A stretch of DNA of 22,563 nucleotides from IMG/VR virus record IMGVR_UViG_2563366825_000028; one strand, given 5' to 3'. The notes beneath the pieces were generated by a model. The model had not been told where the DNA came from and did no database searches. It saw only the letters and a program-made list of their open reading frames with translations. Both the position numbers and the translations under genes were made by a program. Of this stretch, positions 2,927-14,059 are shown in pieces (position 1 is the first letter of the stretch; the number at the start of each line of letters is the position of its first letter). The DNA comes from a virus. Its lineage: Duplodnaviria > Heunggongvirae > Uroviricota > Caudoviricetes.

Positions 2927-4588
2927 TTATATGAAAAAAACCGCATATTCTTTCTTTTTCGGTTCCGGGTTAAGGGACATCAGGGAGACCGCATTGAACA
3001 GCGCCATCAGCGGGTCAATTTTTCCCCGTCCACTGGCCTGTTTGGTGATAAGAATGGCGTTACCTTTAGGCTCCACCCGGGCATTGCCGACACACCAGGC
3101 CATCAGGGGCTGGTCACCATGCACCAGCACCCCTTCAGCCAGTTTGCGCTCGGTGGTTTTAATGGCCCCGCCCAGTTTCCAGCCCTGGCTTATCCCCACC
3201 ACAATTCCGTCGGGGATCCCGGCTTCCGCCAGTGAATCCAGAATCTGCCCCACCCCTGACGGGTCAATACCGATATGGTCCAGTAACTCAGCCTCATGAA
3301 TGCGACGCACATATTCCGCCACTTCCGCCGTGTCATCCCCGATACGCCGGACAATGGTCATATCTCCACAGGCAACAAGATCCTGAAACCGGGACGCCTC
3401 GCTCTTCCGTCGGACCACCGCGGTTTCATGCGCCCAGGCATGGCCCCAGCCCAGCCATTCGCGGGTCTCCCGGTCACGCCCAATCACATACATCCCCAGC
3501 AGATCATCCAGCCCTCCGCCGTCAATCCCCACCGTCACCACATCAGCACGACGCAGGATATCGTCCAGGCTGATACAACGGCCCTGCTCTTCCCAGAAAT
3601 CAGCCCCCGCCCAGCGGTCAGAGCGCAGGGCAAGACCAATTTCCACATTGGCGTGTTTTGACATGAACCCCCGGAATGTCTCTTCACCGGCTTCCCGGGC
3701 TTTACGGTACTCCCGGTACAGAAAGGCCTCATCCACTGAATAGCCGAGATTCGGATTGACCATGGCGAGGTTTTCCATCAGCAGGTGAGCCCCGCTTTCC
3801 ACCATTTCAGGAGGGTGTTCAAATATCACCGGCAGAAAGTGCGGATCATGAATTTTGCCGTCGCGCACATCCCGGGCGTACTGCAGTTTCTGTCTGAACA
3901 CCCCGGCGGGCGGTTCATTCGACTGGGTGGTCGTATACACCACAAACCCTTCCGGGCGGGAGGCAAGGCCGCCGATGGCTTCACGTAACATGTCCTCCGC
4001 CTTGTACTGCTTGCCAAACAGCCACAACTCATCAATCAGCGTACCCACGGACTTGATACCGGACACCGTATTCGGATCGGCTGCCACCACCTTCAGGGTG
4101 GTGTCTGTCACCCTGTGGGTGATGGTCCGGATATGGGTCTGTACCTGGCAGAGGTCATCCAGATCATCGTCACGTCGTACCATATCCCGGGCAGGGTTGA
4201 AGGCGTTGGCCGCCACCTCCACAGTCGGGGCCAGAATCGTGTAACCCGCCGCCTGCCGCCAGTTCAGTAACAGCGCCGTCATCATGATCCCCGCGGCCAG
4301 CGTGGACTTCGAGTTTTTCTTGGGGATAAGGATAAAAACTTCCTTGATATGGCGTACACCGGTCTGCGCATCGTAGGAGCCAAACAGGGCCGCCACCAGG
4401 TCAAACACCCACGGTGCACAGGACTCCCCGAACGTAGGGCTACCAGGTGCATCCACAATCCGCAGTTGTTTAAAAATCGCCAGGGCATGTGCGGCCTCGT
4501 CCGGATAAATCGGATCCGGAATAATCGACAGCCCCTTTTTCAGGCGCTCAGCCCAGTCCGGGCAGGCTGTGCTCCATACAGGTATCAT
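2927..4588 (-). CDS. Terminase large subunit (Terminase_1-type ATPase/nuclease)
   Basis: 553 aa. Walker-A-like segment ILIPKKNSKSTLAAGIMMTALLL and C-terminal nuclease-domain motifs (VTVGIDGGG.DD, KIDPLMALFNAVSLM). The ATG at 4588 overlaps the terS stop (ATGA coupling). Confidence 0.9.
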   Translation of the reverse strand: MIPVWSTACPDWAERLKKGLSIIPDPIYPDEAAHALAIFKQLRIVDAPGSPTFGESCAPWVFDLVAALFGSYDAQTGVRHIKEVFILIPKKNSKSTLAAGIMMTALLLNWRQAAGYTILAPTVEVAANAFNPARDMVRRDDDLDDLCQVQTHIRTITHRVTDTTLKVVAADPNTVSGIKSVGTLIDELWLFGKQYKAEDMLREAIGGLASRPEGFVVYTTTQSNEPPAGVFRQKLQYARDVRDGKIHDPHFLPVIFEHPPEMVESGAHLLMENLAMVNPNLGYSVDEAFLYREYRKAREAGEETFRGFMSKHANVEIGLALRSDRWAGADFWEEQGRCISLDDILRRADVVTVGIDGGGLDDLLGMYVIGRDRETREWLGWGHAWAHETAVVRRKSEASRFQDLVACGDMTIVRRIGDDTAEVAEYVRRIHEAELLDHIGIDPSGVGQILDSLAEAGIPDGIVVGISQGWKLGGAIKTTERKLAEGVLVHGDQPLMAWCVGNARVEPKGNAILITKQASGRGKIDPLMALFNAVSLMSLNPEPKKKEYAVFFI

Positions 4589-5148
4589 CCGTTGCCCTCA
4601 TTATCGTTATTCACCACCAGTCGGGGTGGCGGTGGCACCGCAAAACGGTTAGCCGCTTTTTTCGCGGCATCACCTTTTGCCGATTTTTTCCCGGTATCCC
4701 CTTTTTTATGGTGCGTGAACTGCGCCAGACGCCAGGCCGCATCCAGTGCCAGTTTCGGATCAATGCAGAGGTTTTCCACCAGGATCCGCCCCATGGCTTT
4801 CACCGGATCGGGAAGACCATCCTCCATATATTCAATACCAGGAGACATCACCGCGGACGGTGGCATCTCCGGATTGTTTTCGTCCGGCTGTGGTATTGCA
4901 GCCGCCTCACGGCGACGGGGTTTATCCTCCTGCTCTGATTTTTTCTGCCGGTAAACAGGAACCTCATCCACCTCCACCGTTTCGCACTGTTTACGGGCTA
5001 TAAACGCGAGCACCTCCGGATCTTTTGCCAGCTGCGAGCCTTTAACCCTGGCGGTCTTCGCCGAATAACCGGCGGCAATGGCTGACGCTGTTTTGTTTTT
5101 CCCGGACATGAGCGCCAGCGCAAATTTTCGTTTTTGCGTTGTCAGCAC
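4585..5148 (-). CDS. Terminase small subunit (Terminase_2 / P27-type)
   Basis: N-terminus LTTQKRKFALALMSGKNKTASAIAAGYSAKTARVKGSQLAKDPEV fits the HTH signature of Terminase_2 small subunits. GTG start with GGAGGAGG upstream; the stop overlaps the terL start. Confidence 0.75.
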   Translation of the reverse strand: MLTTQKRKFALALMSGKNKTASAIAAGYSAKTARVKGSQLAKDPEVLAFIARKQCETVEVDEVPVYRQKKSEQEDKPRRREAAAIPQPDENNPEMPPSAVMSPGIEYMEDGLPDPVKAMGRILVENLCIDPKLALDAAWRLAQFTHHKKGDTGKKSAKGDAAKKAANRFAVPPPPRLVVNNDNEGNG

Positions 5149-6936: not shown

Positions 6937-7194
6937 CTACTTCGCTTTTGCTTCCGCTCGCTTACACCGGCGCTTTTCTTTCTTCTCGGCTTTTGCCATG
7001 TCCATGAATGCCTGCATGATCGAGTTCCGCATCATGTAGCTGACAAAGTGATGATTGACACAGCCGTTGAGGCGCAACTGCTCGCCAAACTCATCCACCG
7101 AGGCCAATGCTTCCATCACGCCCTTCTCGCCTTTCATGAACGCTGAGAAGTCGCGCCCCGCTCTGGAGGCGCATTCAATGACACGATCACTCAT
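6937..7194 (-). CDS. Hypothetical protein (85 aa), translationally coupled to the KilA-N gene
   Basis: ATGA overlap with the upstream gene stop (7191-7194). Lys/Arg-rich C-terminal tail. No family recognised. Confidence 0.5.
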   Translation of the reverse strand: MSDRVIECASRAGRDFSAFMKGEKGVMEALASVDEFGEQLRLNGCVNHHFVSYMMRNSIMQAFMDMAKAEKKEKRRCKRAEAKAK

Positions 7195-7688
7195 CCCGGA
7201 AGCCCGGGGATTGTGATCTGCAACTGGTTAGCCAGGGAGTTAATCTCAGCGATCAAACCAGGTTTCGTGTAGCGCCATGCCGCAAGGCCTTGCCCGCAGA
7301 AGCTCGCCATATCTTTTTTCTGATCAAACTCATGACACTTCATATTGAGCTGCGCACTTAAGCTGTTGCGATGCTGGAGTTCTCCGGTGAAGTAGTCATC
7401 CAGGACTTTATAGGCTGCATATTTAAATCCGGGGTTTAGCCATGCTGCATAATCATAAGCAACAAACTTCCCGCCATATGTTCCACCGTGTACACCGCGC
7501 TCAGTAAAAACCACAGATTCGTGGTTTTTCTCCAGCTCGGCTAAGAACTCTTTGGTCTGCTTGTTTCGCAGGTAGTGGTACGGAGATTCAGATTCACTTT
7601 TACCACTGGCTTTCCACATATCAGTGAGGCAGATCATGCCATCTTCAGCGACACGGATTGGCTGATTGAAGAGGGTTAATGATTTCAT
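7191..7688 (-). CDS. KilA-N domain protein (antirepressor/Bro-N-like)
   Basis: MKSLTLFNQPIRVAEDGMICLTDMWKASGK... is typical of the KilA-N DNA-binding domain. ATG 7688 has AGGT 8 nt upstream; the track's GTG at 7757 is an in-frame alternative. Confidence 0.75.
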   Translation of the reverse strand: MKSLTLFNQPIRVAEDGMICLTDMWKASGKSESESPYHYLRNKQTKEFLAELEKNHESVVFTERGVHGGTYGGKFVAYDYAAWLNPGFKYAAYKVLDDYFTGELQHRNSLSAQLNMKCHEFDQKKDMASFCGQGLAAWRYTKPGLIAEINSLANQLQITIPGLPG

Positions 7689-7841
7689 GTCGTATACCTG
7701 TTCTTTGAAATGAACCTTTGCCGCATAGGAAACCAGCCCACCGAGGCTCGCCAGCACTAACTGGTATCCTCAAAGGCTCATTCCAAAGGGGCAGGCTCGG
7801 TGGTTATCATGCGCTGCGGTGCGCGGTGAAATTCAGATATG

Positions 7842-8098: not shown

Positions 8099-8425
8099 AT
8101 GACTAAAAATACTCGTTTTTCCCCCGAAGTCCGTCAGCGGGCGATTCGTATGGTTCTGGAAAGTCAGGATGAATATGACTCACAGTGGGCGGCAATTTGT
8201 TCCATTGCCCCAAAGATTGGCTGTACGCCGGAGACTCTGCGTGTCTGGGTTCGCCAGCATGAGCGGGATACCGGGGGCGGTGATGGTGGGCTCACCAGCG
8301 CTGAACGTCAGCGTCTGAAAGAGCTGGAACGTGAAAATCGTGAACTGCGCCGCAGTAACGATATCCTTCGCCAGGCTTCCGCTTATTTTGCGAAGGCGGA
8401 GTTCGACCGCCTCTGGAAAAAATGA
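8099..8425 (+). CDS. IS3-family transposase OrfA (HTH / leucine-zipper part)
   Basis: 108 aa, [65 protein letters not shown], matching IS629/IS1203 OrfA as I recall it. The A6 run 8417-8422 at the orfA/orfB overlap is a possible -1 frameshift slippery site. Confidence 0.9.
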
Positions 8426-9312
8426 TGCCACTGCTGGATAAGCTGCGTGAGCAGTACGGGGTCGGACCGGTATGCAGCGAACTGCATATTGCCCCGTCAA
8501 CGTATTACCATTGTCAGCAACAGCGACATCATCCGGATAAACGCAGTGCCCGTGCGCAGCACGATGACTGGCTGAAGAGAGAGATACAGCGCGTATACGA
8601 TGAAAATCATCAGGTGTACGGTGTGCGTAAAGTCTGGCGTCAGTTGTTACGGGAAGGAATCAGGGTGGCCAGATGTACAGTGGCGCGCCTCATGGCGGTT
8701 ATGGGACTTGCCGGTGTTCTCCGGGGTAAAAAGGTCCGCACTACCGTCAGCCGGAAAACCGTTGCCACAGGTGACCGCGTAAACCGTCAGTTCGTGGCAG
8801 AACGTCCTGACCAGCTGTGGGTGGCTGATTTTACTTACGTCAGCACATGGCAGGGCTTCGTCTATGTGGCGTTTATCATTGATGTGTTTGCCGGATACAT
8901 CGTGGGGTGGCGGGTCTCATCGTCTATGGAAACGACATTCGTGCTGGATGCGCTGGAGCAGGCGTTGTGGGCCCGTCGTCCGTCTGGCACCATCCATCAC
9001 AGCGATAAAGGCTCTCAGTATGTGTCACTGGCCTATACGGAGCGACTAAAAGAAGTCGGATTACTGGCATCAACAGGGAGTACAGGCGACTCGTATGACA
9101 ACGCGATGGCTGAGAGCATCAATGGTCTTTACAAAGCGGAGGTAATACACCGTAAGAGCTGGAAAAACCGTGCAGAAGTGGAACTGGCCACACTAACGTG
9201 GGTGGACTGGTATAACAATCGACGATTGCTGGGAAGGCTGGGCCATACTCCTCCGGCAGAAGCAGAAAAAGCTTATTATGCTTCCATCGGAAACAATGAT
9301 CTGGCAGCCTGA
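8422..9312 (+). CDS. IS3-family transposase OrfB (DDE integrase-core catalytic domain)
   Basis: 296 aa with rve-type motifs ([59 protein letters not shown]). The ATG overlaps the orfA stop (ATGA). Confidence 0.9.
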
Positions 9313-9648: not shown

Positions 9649-9867
9649 TTAGGCGGCTTTGTTACTGGATGGAGGGAAAACATCATCCAAAGAACATTGG
9701 CACCCTAACTTCCTGAGGCCTTCTACGATCTTTCGGCAATCGTTAAGTCTAGGAGTACGGATATTCAGCTCATAGTTGGCGATGCGGGATTGCCCCCAAC
9801 CAATTGCCGAAGCCAGTACAGCTTGCGAAACTCCGATTTTTTTTCGCTGCTGGGCAATTTTGTTCAT
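9649..9867 (-). CDS. cro: Cro-like repressor (XRE-family HTH), divergent from cI
   Basis: 72 aa from ATG 9867 (GGGAGA RBS), MNKIAQQRKKIGVSQAVLASAIGWGQSRIANYE... The track ORF starts at an upstream GTG inside the operator region. Confidence 0.8.
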   Translation of the reverse strand: MNKIAQQRKKIGVSQAVLASAIGWGQSRIANYELNIRTPRLNDCRKIVEGLRKLGCQCSLDDVFPPSSNKAA

Positions 9868-9897
9868 TGCGGTCTCCCTAGTATTAATCACACACCC

Positions 9898-9970
9898 ATT
9901 ACACACAATTTGTGATTAACAGTCAACCTCAATTCGTGTACAGAGTTCAATCACGTTGCGTGTTACATTT
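9898..9970. promoter_or_regulatory. OR region: divergent pR / pRM promoters with CACA-N3-TGTG operators
   Basis: pR on the minus strand: -35 TTGACT (plus 9926..9921), 17-bp spacer, -10 TGTAAT (plus 9903..9898), with operator CACAATTTGTG (9904-9914) inside the spacer. A second operator CACGTTGCGTG (9952-9962) sits 14 bp from the cI ATG. Candidate pRM -10 is TACATT (9964-9969), which would give a leaderless or near-leaderless cI mRNA. Confidence 0.65.
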
Positions 9971-9975
9971 AAAGG

Positions 9976-10623
9976 ATGAAAACGATGCATGAAATTATCG
10001 GGGAAAGGATCAAGTCCCTTAGAGAAGCTAAAGGACTTAGCCAGGCTCAATTGGCCAAGCTTTGCGGCTGGGCTGCGCCTTCACGCCTGGGGAACTACGA
10101 GTTAGGAACAAGAAAGGTTAGCGCGGATGACGCGCTGGTTCTTGGGGCGGCACTCGGCGTATCTCCGGCAAAAATAATGTTTGGCGAGGATTCAGACGCT
10201 GTATTTCGCCAATATGAGTACCCGTTATTTTCTTCAGTGCAGGCCGGGCCGTTTTCGGAGGTTGGAAGCTACACAGCAAGCGATGCAAAGGCATGGGTCC
10301 CAACGACCACAAAAGCCAGCGAAAAAGCTTTCTGGCTTGAGGTGAAAGGCCATTCTATGACTGCGCCACAGGGCGTAAGGCCGAGTTTTCCTGAGGGTAT
10401 GCTGATACTCGTTGATCCGGCCGAGCCGGTAGAGTCTGGGGATTTCTGCGTGGCTTCTGCAAATGGTGATTCAGAGGCAACGTTCAAGAAGTATGAGAAG
10501 GATGCAGGGGTTAGTTACTTGGTTCCATTGAATCCGGCATACAGAACCCTGGACTGCGATCACACATGCCGCATCATAGGCAAGGTAGTTAAGGCTCAGT
10601 GGCCTGAAGAGACGTTTGGATGA
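9976..10623 (+). CDS. cI: CI-like prophage repressor (HTH domain + LexA-like S24 autopeptidase domain)
   Basis: 215 aa with an N-terminal HTH ([24 protein letters not shown]). The C-terminal domain is very like lambda CI: cleavage-site region [10 protein letters not shown], catalytic Ser in [21 protein letters not shown], and the end ...[17 protein letters not shown] 9985 is an alternative start. Confidence 0.9.
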
Positions 10624-10673
10624 TGGATGGTCGCAGAGATGCTCGTAGAGCATACAGCGATGCAGGAGAATTT

Positions 10674-11108
10674 ATGGCACTTAATTTAGAAAGAATATCT
10701 TTTATAACCCCATTTGATAGCAGCGAAGAACCCAACCAACCGACGCTTAATTTTACATGCAATGAATTTCCTGCGCGGCTATCGATTGATTTCAGGGTTG
10801 GTATGATCGGGTTGAAACCAAATTCAAGATATAATTTGGGTATTATGGTAATCCCCGCGCACCTAATTATAAAAAAAGGTGAGGAAATTCAATTCCCTGA
10901 CGGCTCTTCGGAATCAGTTTCACTTTTCATCGATACGAAAGATAGCCATTTTGAAACAGGGGTTGGCGGACAGGTAATAGTAACATTGAAAGAAATTAGG
11001 GTCCCAGCTAAAGGGCTGTATAGTGTTATAGGGATATTGCAAGATAATGAAGACCCTAAAAATGAACTTCATAAAAATGAATCATTTTTCACCGTAGAGC
11101 TATTATGA
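10674..11108 (+). CDS. Hypothetical soluble protein A (144 aa) of the cI-linked cassette
   Basis: ATG 10674 with AGGAG 5 nt upstream, MALNLERISFITPFDSSEEPNQPTLNFTCNEFPARLSIDFRVGMIGLKPNSRY... Sequence becomes AT-rich from about 10670. No family recognised. Its stop overlaps the start of B (ATGA at 11105-11108). The track ORF begins at 10620, overlapping the cI stop. Confidence 0.7.
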   Translation: MALNLERISFITPFDSSEEPNQPTLNFTCNEFPARLSIDFRVGMIGLKPNSRYNLGIMVIPAHLIIKKGEEIQFPDGSSESVSLFIDTKDSHFETGVGGQVIVTLKEIRVPAKGLYSVIGILQDNEDPKNELHKNESFFTVELL

Positions 11109-11725
11109 GTGACGACAGTAATTTAAATAATCATGGAAAGCAAGACACCAACATATCTGAAAGCCGGAGGTTGAAGGTTGTTGGCGGTTCCGATTTTGAG
11201 GCTGAATTTGATAATTCTCCCACCAAGGTGCAAAATAATTACATAAAACCGCCACAAACGGAGGAAGAAGTGGGAACGATCAGCAGAGAGGAACTTGATG
11301 CTCGCTTAGCTGCTAATAAAGCAGAGATGGAGTCTATTGCTTCTTCCATTAGGACTGACATGGCTCTATCTCGTGAAAGCGTTAATGTCCAATTTGCATC
11401 ACTTAATGCAGCCATAAGCTCTCTATCGTCCAAGATCGATGGAAAGATGGATAGCGCTGCTGGCGATATAAAAGCAATTAATGGGAGATTCGAAGGAATT
11501 CAAGGACAAATAACAGGGGTTAATACCGCAATTAGTGGTGTTCAGTCGGGTATTTCTATACGATTAGCCATTTTTAGTGTCATTATCGCTGTAATAGTTG
11601 CGATTCCCGGGCTGGTATCAGCTTTAAAGTCAGACCACGCACCTTTGCAACAGCCTTCCACTTTGCAAGCGCCGCCACAAAATACCCAGCCAACAGACAA
11701 CAAAAAAATCACTCCCCAGCATTAA
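11105..11725 (+). CDS. Hypothetical tail-anchored coiled-coil membrane protein B (206 aa) of the cI-linked cassette
   Basis: Polar N-terminus, then a long Ala/Ser/Gly/Ile-rich repetitive segment (ASLNAAISSLSSKIDGKMDSAAGDIKAINGRFEGIQGQITGVNTAISGVQSG), one hydrophobic helix ISIRLAIFSVIIAVIVAIPGLVSAL, and a Pro/Gln-rich tail. Followed directly by an intrinsic terminator. Confidence 0.75.
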   Translation: MSDDSNLNNHGKQDTNISESRRLKVVGGSDFEAEFDNSPTKVQNNYIKPPQTEEEVGTISREELDARLAANKAEMESIASSIRTDMALSRESVNVQFASLNAAISSLSSKIDGKMDSAAGDIKAINGRFEGIQGQITGVNTAISGVQSGISIRLAIFSVIIAVIVAIPGLVSALKSDHAPLQQPSTLQAPPQNTQPTDNKKITPQH

Positions 11726-11733
11726 CGCATTAA

Positions 11734-11757
11734 CCCGGCCTCAGCGCCGGGTTTTTT
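11734..11757 (+). terminator. Rho-independent terminator closing the cI-A-B transcription unit
   Basis: CCCGGC (11734-11739), loop CTCAGC, GCCGGG (11746-11751), then TTTTTT (11752-11757). Confidence 0.75.
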
Positions 11758-11994
11758 GTTGCCTGCACATAACTATCAGGACAGCACCTGCCAGCCAGCC
11801 CAAGCCTCTGATTAAATTACTATAATTCTTAATACAACTCCCATATCCCGCCATCTCGTCACCACCTACTTCGCTCGTTTTTCGAACTTTTCAGCACACC
11901 ATCCTGCTGTTTCCCCCGCCTTAAGTAAGCAAACCCATCGCGGGGAAAACTATTTACACAAAAAAATCATACACATAACGTGTCACACCCTTAT

Positions 11995-12042
11995 TTTACA
12001 CATTTTGTGATTGACCATTAAATCACAATATGTGACTATTAT
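11995..12042 (+). promoter_or_regulatory. OL / pL region: CACA-N3-TGTG operators overlapping the early-left promoter
   Basis: Operators CACATTTTGTG (11999-12009) and TCACAATATGTGA (12023-12035). TTGACC (12011-12016) followed by an operator in the spacer mirrors the pR layout (TTGACT + operator + TGTAAT); -10 candidates are GACTAT and TATTAT (12034-12042). An alternative pair is -35 TTTACA (11995-12000) with -10 TTAAAT (12018-12023). Confidence 0.55.
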
Positions 12043-12086
12043 TTCCATCAGCAGGACGCTGGTAGCCAAACGGAAAAGATTGGCAG

Positions 12087-12132
12087 GCTCTTTAAACAAC
12101 GTCGAACACTCGACTACGTGGCTGAAAAGCCA
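12087..12132 (+). promoter_or_regulatory. nutL-like site (boxA + boxB) upstream of N
   Basis: boxA GCTCTTTAAACAA (12087-12099) is close to the rrn/lambda boxA consensus. A 19-nt spacer precedes the boxB hairpin UGGCU-GAAA-AGCCA (12119-12132). Its boxB core and boxA-boxB spacing match the nutR candidate. Confidence 0.6.
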
Positions 12133-12230
12133 GATCACCCAACCACATAAGCTGTGGGATGCAATGCCGAAGCAACCGTCTCAGGAGGAGCTTCGAGATT
12201 GCATCGCCAAAGTTTATTCGGGAGGAATCT

Positions 12231-12503
12231 ATGTCCAGAAAAACAGAATTTAAAGGCACCGCAGCTTCTCGCCGTAGAGCTCGTCGCGCAAACCTGCAAA
12301 GTCAGGAGTCGATTAGCTCCGACAAGCTACACAGGCCAACCCCTTCACGAGTGGTCTTGCAATGCAAGCGCAAACCAGCAATGAGAGCAGAAGTTATAAC
12401 TCTGACAACGTTGACCAGAAAATATGAAGGTTCAACTTGTCTTCCAAACGTAGCCATTTACGCTGCAGGCTACCGTAAATCCAAACAACTGACAGCAAGA
12501 TGA
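12231..12503 (+). CDS. N: N-type transcription antiterminator (P22 gp24 / phage 21 N-like)
   Basis: 90 aa from ATG 12231 (GGAGG 5 nt upstream). Arginine-rich motif GTAASRRRARRANLQ near the N-terminus; C-terminus LPNVAIYAAGYRKSKQLTAR matches the P22 gp24 end LPGVALYAAGHRKSKQITAR (from memory). An in-frame upstream ATG at 12159 has a poor RBS. Confidence 0.8.
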   Translation: MSRKTEFKGTAASRRRARRANLQSQESISSDKLHRPTPSRVVLQCKRKPAMRAEVITLTTLTRKYEGSTCLPNVAIYAAGYRKSKQLTAR

Positions 12504-12564
12504 CTTGTGTTGGTCGCCAGAAAATGAAATTAGGCAGCAAACCACTTATTTGAGAGGAATTAAT

Positions 12565-13188
12565 ATGTCATCAATCCGCTTAACTACGAGAATGAAAGAG
12601 GAAATCGCTCGTAACGCTTTAATTAAGTCCGGGGTGTTCACTGAACTTGAAGAAGTAACAAAGTTAAAGAACCAGCTTGCACTTGACGCCAGAGTTATTG
12701 CGTTTGGCGGGAAAAAGAAAACCGAAGAAGTGGACCAGCTGGCATCAAAGTTAATGGCTGCAAGTGAGGAACTTCAAAAGCTGGGATGTTCATTTTACTC
12801 ATGCGATGTCAGTTCATGTTCGATTTATCTGACTGTATCTGGAAGAAGGGTTGGCTGGCATTCATACGGAAAAGACGGCAACGGTGAAGATATATTGCTC
12901 CCTACCCCCGACAAAGATAAATGCATGTTTGACGCAGAACACAAAATAACAAAAAGGTTTGATGAAATCTGCGCATTGCAACAAAAACTTGAAGCCAGGA
13001 AAAAGGATATAGAATCAAACGTATGGGCTGCTTTGAACTCAGTCACAACAGTTAAGCGACTTATTGAAGTTTGGCCTGAAAGCAAAGAGTTGCTACCAAA
13101 AGAAGCAGATAAAGCAAGTGCAGCACTTCCTGCTTTACGGGTAGAAGATTTGAATAAGATGATTGGACTTCCTTCCGAGGCCGCATAA
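12565..13188 (+). CDS. Hypothetical protein (207 aa), AT-rich accessory gene in the N-cIII interval
   Basis: ATG 12565 with GAGAGGAA RBS. No TM segments and no family recognised. Occupies the position where lambda carries ral/sieB-type accessory genes. Confidence 0.7.
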   Translation: MSSIRLTTRMKEEIARNALIKSGVFTELEEVTKLKNQLALDARVIAFGGKKKTEEVDQLASKLMAASEELQKLGCSFYSCDVSSCSIYLTVSGRRVGWHSYGKDGNGEDILLPTPDKDKCMFDAEHKITKRFDEICALQQKLEARKKDIESNVWAALNSVTTVKRLIEVWPESKELLPKEADKASAALPALRVEDLNKMIGLPSEAA

Positions 13189-13203
13189 TCGGCCTTTATT
13201 TTT
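13179..13203 (+). terminator. Weak candidate intrinsic terminator at the end of the 12565-13188 gene
   Basis: GGCCG (13179-13183), loop CATAAT containing the stop codon, CGGCC (13190-13194), then TTTATTTTT. Confidence 0.4.
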
Positions 13204-13322
13204 GGCATAAACAACAGAATAAACACTGCACTGTGTATTCATTCCAACGAGTGAATACACGGAGCAATGTCGCTCGTAACTAAACAGGAGCCGACTTGTT
13301 CTGATTATTGGAAATCTTCTTT

Positions 13323-13346
13323 GCCCTCCAATGTGAGGGCTTTTTT
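13323..13346 (+). terminator. Rho-independent terminator (tL-like) upstream of cIII
   Basis: GCCCTC (13323-13328), loop CAATGT, GAGGGC (13335-13340), then TTTTTT (13341-13346). Confidence 0.7.
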
Positions 13347-13412
13347 ATATGCATACCAATAACGCTTCACTAGAGGCGTTTTCGTTATGTGTAAATAAAT
13401 AAGGAGCACACC

Positions 13413-13553
13413 ATGCAATATGCCATTGCAGGGTGGCCTGTTGCTGGCTGCCCTTCCGAATCTTTACTTGAACGAATCACCCGTAAATTACGTGACGGAT
13501 GGAAACGCCTTATCGACATACTTAATCAGCCAGGAGTTCCCAAAAATGGATAA
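13413..13553 (+). CDS. cIII: CIII-like FtsH (HflB) protease inhibitor (46 aa)
   Basis: AAGGAG RBS 6 nt upstream. [46 protein letters not shown] is essentially the lambda CIII sequence as I recall it, including the central amphipathic helix. Below the ORF-track size cut-off. Confidence 0.85.
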   Translation: MQYAIAGWPVAGCPSESLLERITRKLRDGWKRLIDILNQPGVPKNG

Positions 13554-13689
13554 AACACTTATGGCTATCCAGACTAAATTCACTATCGCCACTTTTATTG
13601 GTGATGAAAAGATGTTTCGTGAAGCCGTCGACGCTTATAAAAAATGGATATTAATACTGAAACTGAGATCAAGCAAAAGCATTCACTAA
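13546..13689 (+). CDS. kil: Kil-like host cell-division inhibitor (47 aa)
   Basis: ATG overlaps the cIII 3' end. [47 protein letters not shown]; position between cIII and gam and the overlap with the gam 5' region match the lambda kil arrangement (from memory). Confidence 0.7.
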
Positions 13690-13762
13690 CCCCTTTCCTG
13701 TTTTCCTAATCAGCCCGGCATTTCGCGGGCGATATTTTCACAGCTATTTCAGGAGTTCAGCC

Positions 13763-14059
13763 ATGAACGCTTATTACATTCAGGATCGTCTTGAGGCTCA
13801 GAGCTGGGCGCGTCACTACCAGCAGATCGCCCGTGAAGAGAAAGAGGCAGAACTGGCAGACGACATGGAAAAAGGCCTGCCCCAGCACCTGTTTGAATCG
13901 CTATGCATCGATCATTTGCAACGCCACGGGGCCAGCAAAAAAGCCATTATCCGTGCGTTTGATGACGATGTTGAGTTTCAGGAGCGCATGGCAGAACACA
14001 TCCGGTACATGGTTGAAACCATTGCTCACCATCAGGTTGATATTGATTCAGAGGTATAA
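13763..14059 (+). CDS. gam: Gam host-nuclease (RecBCD) inhibitor, short GamS form (98 aa)
   Basis: [56 protein letters not shown]... is near-identical to lambda GamS as I recall it. AGGAG RBS 7 nt upstream. Confidence 0.95.

Follow-up and report, generated by a model that had tools for sequence, protein, structure and literature searches.

An Nmad5-family gene and a close copy of the lambda PreS small RNA in the N-cIII interval of a lambda-like prophage

In the early left (pL) operon of phage lambda, sieB, ral and ea10 occupy a variable slot between the antitermination gene N and cIII. What takes their place in the prophage DNA considered here, and what the structured DNA behind it may encode, are questions raised by an earlier note, which pointed to a 207-aa open reading frame followed by a stack of hairpins. 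The window, by which we mean the whole stretch of 22,563 nucleotides analysed (IMG/VR record IMGVR_UViG_2563366825_000028), is an ordinary piece of lambda-like prophage DNA, and the interval contains two elements that are already catalogued, an Nmad5 gene and a near-identical copy of the small RNA PreS with its terminator. The whole interval is very probably a standard mosaic segment of the lambdoid pL operon with two independent parts, the first being an Nmad5 gene cassette and the second the conserved lambda backbone that runs from the PreS region into cIII. RefSeq already has a name for the gene, and the RNA was reported from lambda in 2024, so that little in the segment is new. The prophage that carries it may be defective.

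Layout and transcription of the interval

All features of the interval lie on the plus strand. Directly upstream is a lambda-type N gene of 90 aa (12231..12503; Pfam PF25694 N_peptide, E 1.6e-31), and directly downstream is cIII (13413..13553, 46 aa; PF02061, E 9e-31). The location between N and cIII is therefore as first described, and so are the 207-aa reading frame (12565..13188), which has an ATG start, and its strong ribosome-binding site, a GAGAGGA Shine-Dalgarno sequence at 12552..12558, 6 nt before the ATG. Further downstream lies kil, and the gene order continues as cIII-kil-gam-bet-exo.

The 62-nt spacer in front of the gene is itself left over from N coding sequence and shows where the left mosaic junction lies. 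Its translation at 12503..12553, TCVGRQKMKLGSKPLI followed by a stop, is the C-terminus of the HK542 N protein, and it represents the 3' end of a different, lambda/HK542-type N gene; from 12501 onward the DNA is identical to that of HK542. RefSeq calls this remnant a partial pseudogene, 'regulator', in E. coli strain SCU-104. In comparison with the other lambdoid phages that carry Nmad5, it is thus the upstream N allele that differs here, leaving the HK542-type 3' fossil behind.

The earlier note had regarded the gene as an AT-rich moron of distinct composition. Its GC content, 42.1%, is indeed below that of the window (50.2%) and of gam, bet and exo (50-52%), but N (47.6%), cIII (46.1%), kil (34.0%) and two ORFs in the rex position (38.9% and 43.2%) are AT-rich as well, so that the composition argument stands only in part. 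The reading as a moron in the strict sense is not supported. The gene belongs to the pL operon, no terminator was found between N and it, and no promoter-like site was found in 11600-13800, although that scan was insensitive, as it also missed pL itself. As to the remaining features by which morons are recognised, a terminator-like hairpin does follow the gene directly, and its GC content of 42% resembles that of N, cIII and kil.

A terminator scan of the plus strand placed sites downstream of pL at 13177, 13323, 13361 and 13713 only. It found no intrinsic terminator from the pL start (about 12047) up to the hairpin at 13177, and none between N and the Nmad5 gene; Rho-dependent termination may occur between these two genes. 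The Nmad5 gene would be co-transcribed with N from pL, and with the hairpin at 13177 being the first intrinsic-terminator-like site past the promoter, its product would be immediate-early, made even before N acts.

The PreS region and its hairpins

The 251-nt interval as a whole folds far better than shuffled sequences (z -6.6). All three structured elements listed in the earlier note were placed correctly; a fourth hairpin and the cIII thermoregulator had been missed. The first, described as a weak terminator, lies over the stop codon of the Nmad5 gene (13177..13203). Its hairpin (13177-13196) has a 7-bp stem, GAGGCCG/CGGCCTT, with five G-C pairs and is followed by TATTTTT (-11 kcal/mol, z -1.9). 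The 3' arm and the T-run also occur in lambda, whereas the Nmad5 gene supplies the 5' arm, and the equivalent lambda stretch folds no better than shuffles.

The second element, noted as an 11-bp stem at 13233-13260, extends to 14 pairs (13231..13262) around a CAAC loop and has no U-tail. With a folding energy of -20.2 kcal/mol (z -6.7), it is matched by none of 200 shuffles. The hairpin is identical in lambda, HK542 and PhiR12_1, is nearly invariant in 97 distinct variants of the region and abuts the estimated 5' end of PreS. The few variants in its stem are single changes, one giving a G-U pair and the others mismatches; in a region too conserved for covariation, they speak neither for nor against the structure. 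The third element is the Rho-independent terminator tL2a (13323..13346), a GC-rich hairpin (GCCCTC-CAATGT-GAGGGC, stem 13323-13340) followed directly by six T residues, which forms the 3' end of PreS.

Beyond tL2a, the stretch 13351-13460 has 94.6% identity to the ea10-cIII intergenic region of lambda. Here ea10 is absent, and tL2a is therefore followed directly by the ea10-cIII spacer. This spacer contains the fourth hairpin, which has a U-run (13361..13386; -11.7 kcal/mol, z -3.4) and which is probably tL2b. The cIII thermoregulator, a set of alternative structures in the 5' region of cIII (13400..13458), is a full-length match to Rfam RF01804, Lambda_thermo (model positions 1-59 of 59; 88.5 bits against a gathering score of 50, E 1e-21), and no difference from the lambda element at the start of cIII was noted. 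It is placed just outside the segment that the earlier note had described.

That note had also guessed that the structured DNA might encode a small RNA. The guess was right, but the RNA has already been described: it is LPR1/PreS of lambda, with tL2a. In lambda, the ral-ea10 region encodes this Hfq-dependent sRNA, which ends at tL2a, a terminator known long before the sRNA, and appears on northern blots as species of about 88 and about 68 nt in the lytic cycle only (Silverman et al., bioRxiv 10.1101/2024.10.31.621285). It co-immunoprecipitates with Hfq, and RIL-seq chimeras have been reported for it. The RNA base-pairs with the leader of dnaN, increases the output of a dnaA-dnaN (dnaAN)-gfp translational fusion and contributes to phage DNA replication (bioRxiv 10.1101/2024.10.31.621285). 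As a criterion for LPR1, the same authors used at least 92% identity to the lambda sequence (bioRxiv 10.1101/2024.10.31.621285). At 96.9% identity to the lambda ral-ea10 intergenic region over 163 nt, the copy at 13191-13351 of the window lies well above that value.

Within the pL operon the copy is oriented as in lambda, upstream of cIII and with the 14-bp hairpin in front, but the gene upstream of it is Nmad5, where lambda has ral. The sRNA, placed at 13261..13346 with ends estimated by measuring the roughly 88 nt published for it upstream from the U-tract of tL2a, differs from that of lambda only at one loop base and by an indel of 2 nt. In the terminator loop an A stands here for the G of lambda, and the stem runs straight into the U-tract here (GGGCTTTTTT), whereas in lambda GA precedes the U-tract (GGGCGATTTTTT). 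The pairing region (13297..13323) comprises an 11-nt block (13297-13307) and a 12-nt block (13312-13323) that are perfect complements of the leader of E. coli K-12 dnaN, the 12-nt match lying at -47 and the 11-nt match at -27 relative to the dnaN AUG. In an exact-complement search of the dnaN leader, a match of 12 nt or more arose in six of 2000 shuffles; the energy of the whole-length PreS-dnaN duplex was no better than that of shuffles. Among the 97 distinct variants, the pairing stretch varies at two positions only, 13307 and 13319, and conservation of the PreS region exceeds that of the flanking coding DNA. A 31-codon reading frame within PreS (13267-13362) was discarded as a coding candidate: its substitutions show no third-position bias, and only 2 nt separate its GGAG from the ATG.

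An alternative is that the hairpin region of this element is a cluster of tL terminators that yields no discrete RNA. Canonical terminator-like sites make up two of the four structures, tL2a was first recognised as a terminator, and Rfam holds no family for the PreS region. Against this stand the northern, Hfq and RIL-seq data from lambda for an sRNA whose body has the same sequence here, the conserved dnaN complements and a conservation across the 97 variants that is stronger than in flanking coding DNA, which together make the alternative very improbable. While expression of PreS is known from lambda and the window copy from its sequence, the pairing sequence is the same in both, from which we infer that the copy in this prophage acts as in lambda. 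Transcription that reads through the weak terminator behind the Nmad5 gene would continue over the 14-bp hairpin and then PreS, which would end at tL2a; another small terminator-like hairpin and the cIII thermosensor would then lead into cIII-kil-gam-bet-exo.

The Nmad5 family and its possible role

The reading frame had been said to carry no recognisable domain, which proved wrong. The protein (207 aa, 23 kDa) matches PF18757 Nmad5 over residues 4-203 and the entire profile (1-206 of 206) with E 1.1e-68 and 231.9 bits against a cut-off of 27, and it matches PHROG 1965 with E 3e-81. No other Pfam family was matched, the Ral domain included, and neither NCBIfam (no significant model) nor PADLOC (no match) adds to this assignment. 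In RefSeq the product is named 'Nmad5 family putative nucleotide modification protein', a name present in 211 of 5426 complete E. coli genomes. We found no papers on PF18757, PHROG 1965 or 'Nmad5 family', and no biochemical data for a nucleotide-modifying activity in the literature searched.

The same N-to-cIII slot holds Nmad5 in HK542 (gp33), mEp235, PhiR12, Kapi1 and Stx1 phages. The lambdoid homologues (HK542 gp33, HK244 01, and those of mEp235, PhiR12, Kapi1 and Stx1a phages) have the same length and position and 92-94% amino acid identity to the window protein; E. coli SCU-104 and ten IMG/VR contigs encode an identical protein, while the copy in Stx2a phages matches residues 34-207 only. 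PreS follows close Nmad5 homologues in 75 of 78 distinct contexts and distant ones in none of 33. The gene is under purifying selection (median dN/dS 0.23 among 19 alleles, 18 of which are intact). A 133-aa reading frame lies on the opposite strand (12825-13226); the pattern of purifying selection fits the plus-strand frame.

Homologues in virulent phages (Pollock gp49, YuA gp15, M6 ORF056, eiAU gp32 and those of Dhillonvirus) share the domain and a length of about 200-250 aa but only 24-37% identity, and none is followed by PreS. They retain an N-terminal RLT...A..K.G motif and the C-terminal motifs WPE..ELLP and LN..IGLP. Nearly all of the best-scoring 150 of the 2654 clusters in the family are stand-alone proteins of about 200 aa. 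Only three residues, A18, L166 and N197, are the same in all of 43 diverse members, and conserved polar residues are few. The window protein has the family motifs, namely R-L-T...A, LGG and FGG in the N-terminal part and TT.K.L..WPE..ELLP...LN..IGLP in the C-terminal part, with R5, A18, R43, G48, G93, T162, L166, W170, P171, E172, L176, P178, L196, N197 and G201 all present. Structure prediction, which the earlier note had proposed, gave an AlphaFold2 model (pLDDT 84.7) that is mostly helical with a small beta hairpin and no obvious membrane-spanning helix, the conserved C-terminal tail being its lowest-confidence part. Its neighbours were uninformative. Foldseek found no match in the PDB with E below 0.8, the structural neighbours in BFVD were only other uncharacterised Nmad5 proteins, and a sequence search of PDB chains gave nothing below E 0.7.

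In 17 diverse viral loci, a DNA_pol_A gene is a neighbour in six, and others include helicases, DUF2800/PD-(D/E)XK nucleases, RecT, an Enc34 ssDNA-binding protein, primases and SSB. Overall, genes for DNA polymerase, exonuclease, primase and annealing protein predominate beside Nmad5 in phages. In the N4-like phage Pollock, Nmad5 lies between thymidylate synthase and an exonuclease, inside a polymerase-primase-Sak4-SSB block, and in eiAU it adjoins the helicase-primase. In Serratia and Providencia prophages it directly follows the repressor gene, and in Dhillonvirus it is found on the opposite strand, among head genes. A thymidine-hypermodification cluster, to which the family owes its name, surrounds it in YuA and M6-like phages.

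We tentatively propose that Nmad5 is a non-catalytic factor for phage or host DNA replication, recombination or nucleotide metabolism, and that its C-terminal motif binds a partner. The proposal draws on genomic context and conservation, our confidence in it is low, and it is somewhat more likely to be wrong than right. The putative partner-binding motif would be TT-K-R-L-x3-WPE-x2-ELLP ... LN-x2-IGLP. The Dhillonvirus homologue, which was apparently toxic to clone, also speaks for the proposal: mutations by which phages escape the Tmn defence system map to a lysine, K216, which in the sibling phage SM_A2 lies in the conserved TDKK-LIKAWPE motif and aligns with K164-R165 here, the mapping having been made on SM_A2 and not on the PhiSMA8 sequence. 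Against the proposal count the place of the gene in the hypermodification cluster of YuA/M6-like phages and among the Dhillonvirus head genes, and the low model confidence of the conserved C-terminal tail. A more ambitious form of the proposal would have Nmad5 misnamed, an immediate-early non-catalytic partner of replication and recombination modules whose C-terminal motif is a protein-binding surface that also meets the Tmn defence system, and which in E. coli lambdoid phages makes up an early 'replication-boost' unit with PreS, acting on the host replisome. In this full form we consider it unlikely.

Three other functions, none of which we favour, have to be weighed. The first is that of an anti-defence protein, either a Ral-like agent of restriction alleviation or another inhibitor of immunity, made first from pL to guard the incoming DNA. 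The accessory slot that Nmad5 occupies is the one where lambda has ral, and its transcription is probably immediate-early. Phages with a single K-to-E change in the Dhillonvirus homologue, moreover, escape Tmn, while those in which the gene is deleted do not. Lambda Ral, SieB and Ea10 share with Nmad5 the variable pL-operon slot and the conserved PreS linker that flanks it, but no sequence relationship. Ral acts on type I modification. For the anti-restriction or defence role suggested in the earlier note we found no direct evidence: Pfam detects neither Ral nor any other anti-restriction domain, PADLOC gives no match, and the neutral pI of 6.8 (6.76, from 32 acidic and 32 basic residues) is unlike that of acidic DNA mimics of the Ocr/ArdA type. 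Some phages carry Nmad5 and ral together, from which it follows that Nmad5 is not simply a replacement for ral, and that simple replacement model was rejected. The presence of Nmad5 in the replication modules of virulent N4-like, Yua-like and eiAU-like phages also fits a core role in DNA metabolism better than host-specific counter-defence. Anti-defence is thus an unlikely function.

Less likely again is that Nmad5 is an enzyme, or an obligatory accessory, of a DNA base-modification pathway, as its Pfam and RefSeq names imply. The homologues in YuA and M6/SN1-like phages stand beside genes for a putative kinase, a dUMP hydroxymethylase and an aGPT-Pplase, and one distant member adjoins ThyX and a HAD phosphatase. 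However, no modification gene was found among the scanned ORFs of the window or in the listed neighbour families of the 17 diverse loci, the protein has almost no conserved polar or catalytic residues, and the helical model lacks an enzyme-like structural neighbour. The hypermodification clusters themselves adjoin a DNA polymerase gene, and the association of Nmad5 with modification may therefore be secondary.

The weakest candidate, a sieB-like moron expressed in the lysogen for defence or superinfection exclusion, takes its appeal from the sieB slot, an AT content above the window average and the terminator-like hairpin behind the gene, but it is highly improbable given a gene downstream of the repressed pL with no promoter of its own found, an adjacent PreS detected in lambda only in the lytic cycle, the lack of a PADLOC match and of an obvious membrane-spanning helix in the model, and a family that extends to strictly virulent phages; for a gene driven from pL, a defence role in the lysogen is unlikely.

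Implications for Nmad5 and PreS

As a non-catalytic factor in DNA metabolism, the reading that we tentatively prefer, Nmad5 would carry a name that may mislead annotators. It is a very widespread phage protein, found in lambdoid, N4-like, Yua-like and eiAU-like phages and in Dhillon viruses (2654 clusters). The interval provides a clean natural example of PreS as a conserved linker between exchangeable cassettes: the flanking cassette may be ral, sieB-ral, Nmad5, ral plus Nmad5, or none, with ea10 present or absent.

Layout and mosaic origin of the N-cIII interval

The plus strand of the window can be read as a prophage early-left operon of lambda type. First comes a LexA/S24-type repressor (9976-10623, +), followed on the same strand by two overlapping ORFs in the rexA/rexB position (10620-11108, 162 aa, and 11105-11725, 206 aa), a pL-like promoter (~12011-12039, +; TTGACC, 17 nt, GACTAT), N (12231-12503, +; PF25694), the 207-aa Nmad5 ORF (12565-13188, +; PF18757), cIII (13413-13553, +; PF02061) and, 3' of cIII on this strand, kil (PF06301), gam, bet and exo. 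Whereas the N-cIII interval of lambda carries sieB, orf28, ral, and ea10, the window has the Nmad5 ORF there. By eye, a candidate nutL 3' of pL (12085-12135) comprises a boxA-like GGCTCTTTAAACAA and, after it, small hairpins, GTCGAACACTCGAC and TGGCTGAAAAGCCA (GAAA-type loop in the second); they would fit the non-lambda N allele.

Both mosaic junctions can be placed. Immediately 3' of the stop codon that ends the functional N allele, 12503-12553 translates to TCVGRQKMKLGSKPLI and a stop, the C-terminus of a different, HK542/lambda-type N, and the window DNA is identical to that of HK542 from 12501 onward. Therefore, the 62-nt spacer between N and Nmad5 is a fossil of another N allele and places a recombination junction within N; in Escherichia coli strain SCU-104, RefSeq annotates this remnant as a partial pseudogene. 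At the right junction, lambda homology starts at GGCCTTTATTTTT (13191). The segment 13191-13351 is 96.9% identical to the lambda ral-ea10 intergenic region and 13351-13460 is 94.6% identical to the ea10-cIII spacer and the start of cIII. In lambda, ea10 lies between these two pieces, whereas in the window it is cleanly absent.

Elsewhere, only ~4.5 kb separate a cro-like ORF (9649-9906, -) from the small terminase gene (4585-5148, -), and this gap includes an IS3-family transposase pair (8099-9312) and a KilA-N/ORF11CD3 protein (7191-7757). None of the window ORFs scanned looked like a replication, Q, or lysis gene, so this may be a defective or rearranged prophage. The head-gene order is also unusual: no portal gene separates the large terminase gene (2927-4588, -) from the next one, which encodes a 645-aa fusion of a prohead protease (Peptidase_S78) and an HK97-type capsid protein (926-2863, -).

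The PreS small RNA and its surrounding terminators

The earlier note had described the ORF, its ribosome-binding site, and three structured elements (13179-13203, 13233-13260, and 13323-13346), and all were found in place. The interval 13170-13420 (251 nt) has a folding energy of -82 kcal/mol, compared with -53 ± 4 for shuffled sequences (z -6.6). The first hairpin alone is modest (-11 kcal/mol, z -1.9) and hybrid, its 3' arm and T-run coming from the lambda backbone and its 5' arm being the end of the Nmad5 gene; the lambda counterpart, at the end of ral, folds no better than chance. The second is indeed very strong (13231-13262, -20.2 kcal/mol, z -6.7), but its stem has 14 pairs rather than the 11 first reported, and the third is a textbook terminator. 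Two further elements had gone unmentioned: a fourth hairpin, which carries a U-run (13361-13386, z -3.4), and the cIII thermoregulator (Rfam RF01804; 13400-13458, 88.5 bits). A terminator scan from pL to 13177 gave no intrinsic-terminator-like site. Between kil and gam, a terminator-like hairpin (13713-13730; GCCCGGCATTTCGCGGGC, then GATATTTTC) is presumably a further member of the lambda tL2 terminator cluster.

The suggestion that the structured region could encode a small RNA was right, but this RNA has already been published as lambda PreS. Formerly LPR1, PreS is an Hfq-bound sRNA encoded between ral and ea10, with its 3' end at the tL2a terminator and species of ~88 and ~68 nt that appear only in the lytic cycle (Silverman et al., bioRxiv 10.1101/2024.10.31.621285). 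Its pairing with the dnaA-dnaN region, an increase of ~4-fold in expression of a dnaAN-gfp translational fusion, and repression of alaS are described in the same preprint, along with deletions of the seed or of the whole RNA that reduce both the replication of phage DNA and the yield of spontaneous phage. A 2025 review repeats these findings. In the window, the sRNA body is that of lambda except for one loop base and for a GA that precedes the U-tract in lambda. An 88-nt RNA ending at the U-tract would begin at ~13259-13261, at the base of the 14-bp hairpin. Two stretches are perfectly complementary to the leader of K-12 dnaN, one at -47 (12 nt, 13312-13323) and one at -27 (11 nt, 13297-13307); a complement of at least 12 nt arose in 6 of 2000 shuffles.

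Among 97 distinct variants from viral contigs, PreS is almost invariant, and hence offers no usable covariation. The homology blocks begin at ~13189, ~13229, or ~13259, so the minimal conserved unit is the sRNA alone. In the 2.5 kb upstream of PreS, the 120 viral contigs that bear it carry Ral, SieB-Ral, Nmad5, Ral with Nmad5 (viral loci L116 and L122), or none of these, and Ea10 may be present or absent on the 3' side. Judged from these arrangements, PreS links flanking cassettes that are themselves exchangeable. It lies 3' of close Nmad5 homologues in 75 of 78 distinct contexts and in 0 of 33 for homologues below 90% identity; the association thus comes from the E. coli lambdoid backbone and not from the Nmad5 family.

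In the sequence of events that we propose, N and Nmad5 would be co-transcribed as immediate-early genes and the hairpin at 13177 would be the first N-sensitive stop. PreS would arise from read-through RNA that terminates at tL2a and is processed on its 5' side beside the 14-bp hairpin, and PreS would then act on dnaN, as in lambda.

The Nmad5 gene and its family

The ORF, preceded by a Shine-Dalgarno GAGAGGA 6 nt 5' of its ATG, had been thought to lack a recognizable domain. This was mistaken, as it matches the whole PF18757 (Nmad5) profile (E 1.1e-68), as well as PHROG 1965, a family of unknown function (E 3e-81). RefSeq names the product "Nmad5 family putative nucleotide modification protein". 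Of 5426 complete E. coli genomes, 211 carry the gene, the SCU-104 copy being 100% identical, and copies at 92-94% identity, annotated as hypothetical, occupy the N-cIII slot of HK542 (gp33), PhiR12 phages, mEp235, Kapi1, and Stx1a-converting phages. Across 19 distinct alleles, 18 are intact and the median dN/dS is 0.23, which indicates a real gene under selection. Its composition (42.1% GC) does differ from the window (50.2%) and from gam/bet/exo (50-52%), but other neighbours are AT-rich too (N 47.6%, cIII 46.1%, kil 34.0%, rex-position ORFs 38.9% and 43.2%). In Stx2a phages, all 48 records with a match carry a copy (e.g., LC616058.1, 11132-11653); among the records listed, these match only residues 34-207 of the window protein, so that the N-terminus is either truncated or different.

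The family comprises 2654 clusters (E ≤ 0.001), and nearly all of the best 150 are stand-alone proteins of ~200 aa. Only A18, L166, and N197 are invariant across 43 diverse members; the near-invariant residues are mostly Gly, Pro, Trp, and Leu, with R5, R43, T162, and E172. The window protein is neutral (pI 6.8). Its AlphaFold2 model (pLDDT 84.7) has three long helices, a small beta hairpin, a long helix, and short C-terminal helices, with the conserved tail (182-207) in the low-confidence part, and its structural neighbours in BFVD are other Nmad5 proteins only.

Possible functions of Nmad5

Genomic context points to DNA metabolism. In 17 diverse viral loci, the commonest neighbours are DNA_pol_A (6), helicases, DUF2800/PD-(D/E)XK, RecT, Enc34 ssDNA-binding protein, primases, and SSB. 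Nmad5 comes first after the repressor gene in prophages of Serratia and Providencia, the latter continuing with a DUF2800 nuclease, Enc34 ssDNA-binding protein, and DNA polymerase A. It adjoins the helicase-primase in eiAU, and in the N4-like phage Pollock it stands between thymidylate synthase and an exonuclease inside a polymerase-primase-Sak4-SSB block. We tentatively favour, at somewhat less than even confidence, an early factor without catalytic activity that would serve DNA replication, recombination, or nucleotide metabolism by way of its C-terminal motif.

The sole experiments on Nmad5 are the Tmn-escape and cloning work on a Dhillonvirus homologue. There, a single change, K216E (or K296E), gives escape from the Tmn defence system, deletion does not, and the gene, apparently toxic, could not be cloned. 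In Escherichia phage SM_A2 (1017-1781), residue 216 is the second lysine of NTDKK-LIKAWPE and aligns with K164-R165 of the window protein. Mapped on this sibling rather than on PhiSMA8, the phage of the escape work, the site would lie in the family's most conserved motif. Among Dhillonviruses (SM_A2 and viral locus L278, 2473-3297), conservation at the DNA level is confined to the C-terminal third of the gene, which in Dhillonvirus lies on the other strand among head genes. That Nmad5 is an anti-defence protein is conceivable but rather unlikely; the defence or anti-defence role raised in the earlier note found no direct support.

A modification enzyme or accessory, as the RefSeq name implies, is less probable still. 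In YuA, Nmad5 does lie within a putative thymidine-hypermodification cluster that adjoins DNA polymerase A, and a distant family member is flanked by ThyX and a HAD phosphatase, but the conserved residues form no typical catalytic signature. An exclusion gene expressed in the lysogen is very improbable.

A lysogen-expressed exclusion system could be formed by the rex-position ORFs, which gave no Pfam match above threshold and no PADLOC match; HK542 has a similar pair. The second ORF (11105-11725) has a coiled-coil look and a hydrophobic C-terminal helix. These ORFs are less characterized than the Nmad5/PreS interval, of which both components, the Nmad5 gene and the PreS region, are already catalogued. 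The biochemistry of the Nmad5 family would be a fair target for experiments, although not one specific to this window.
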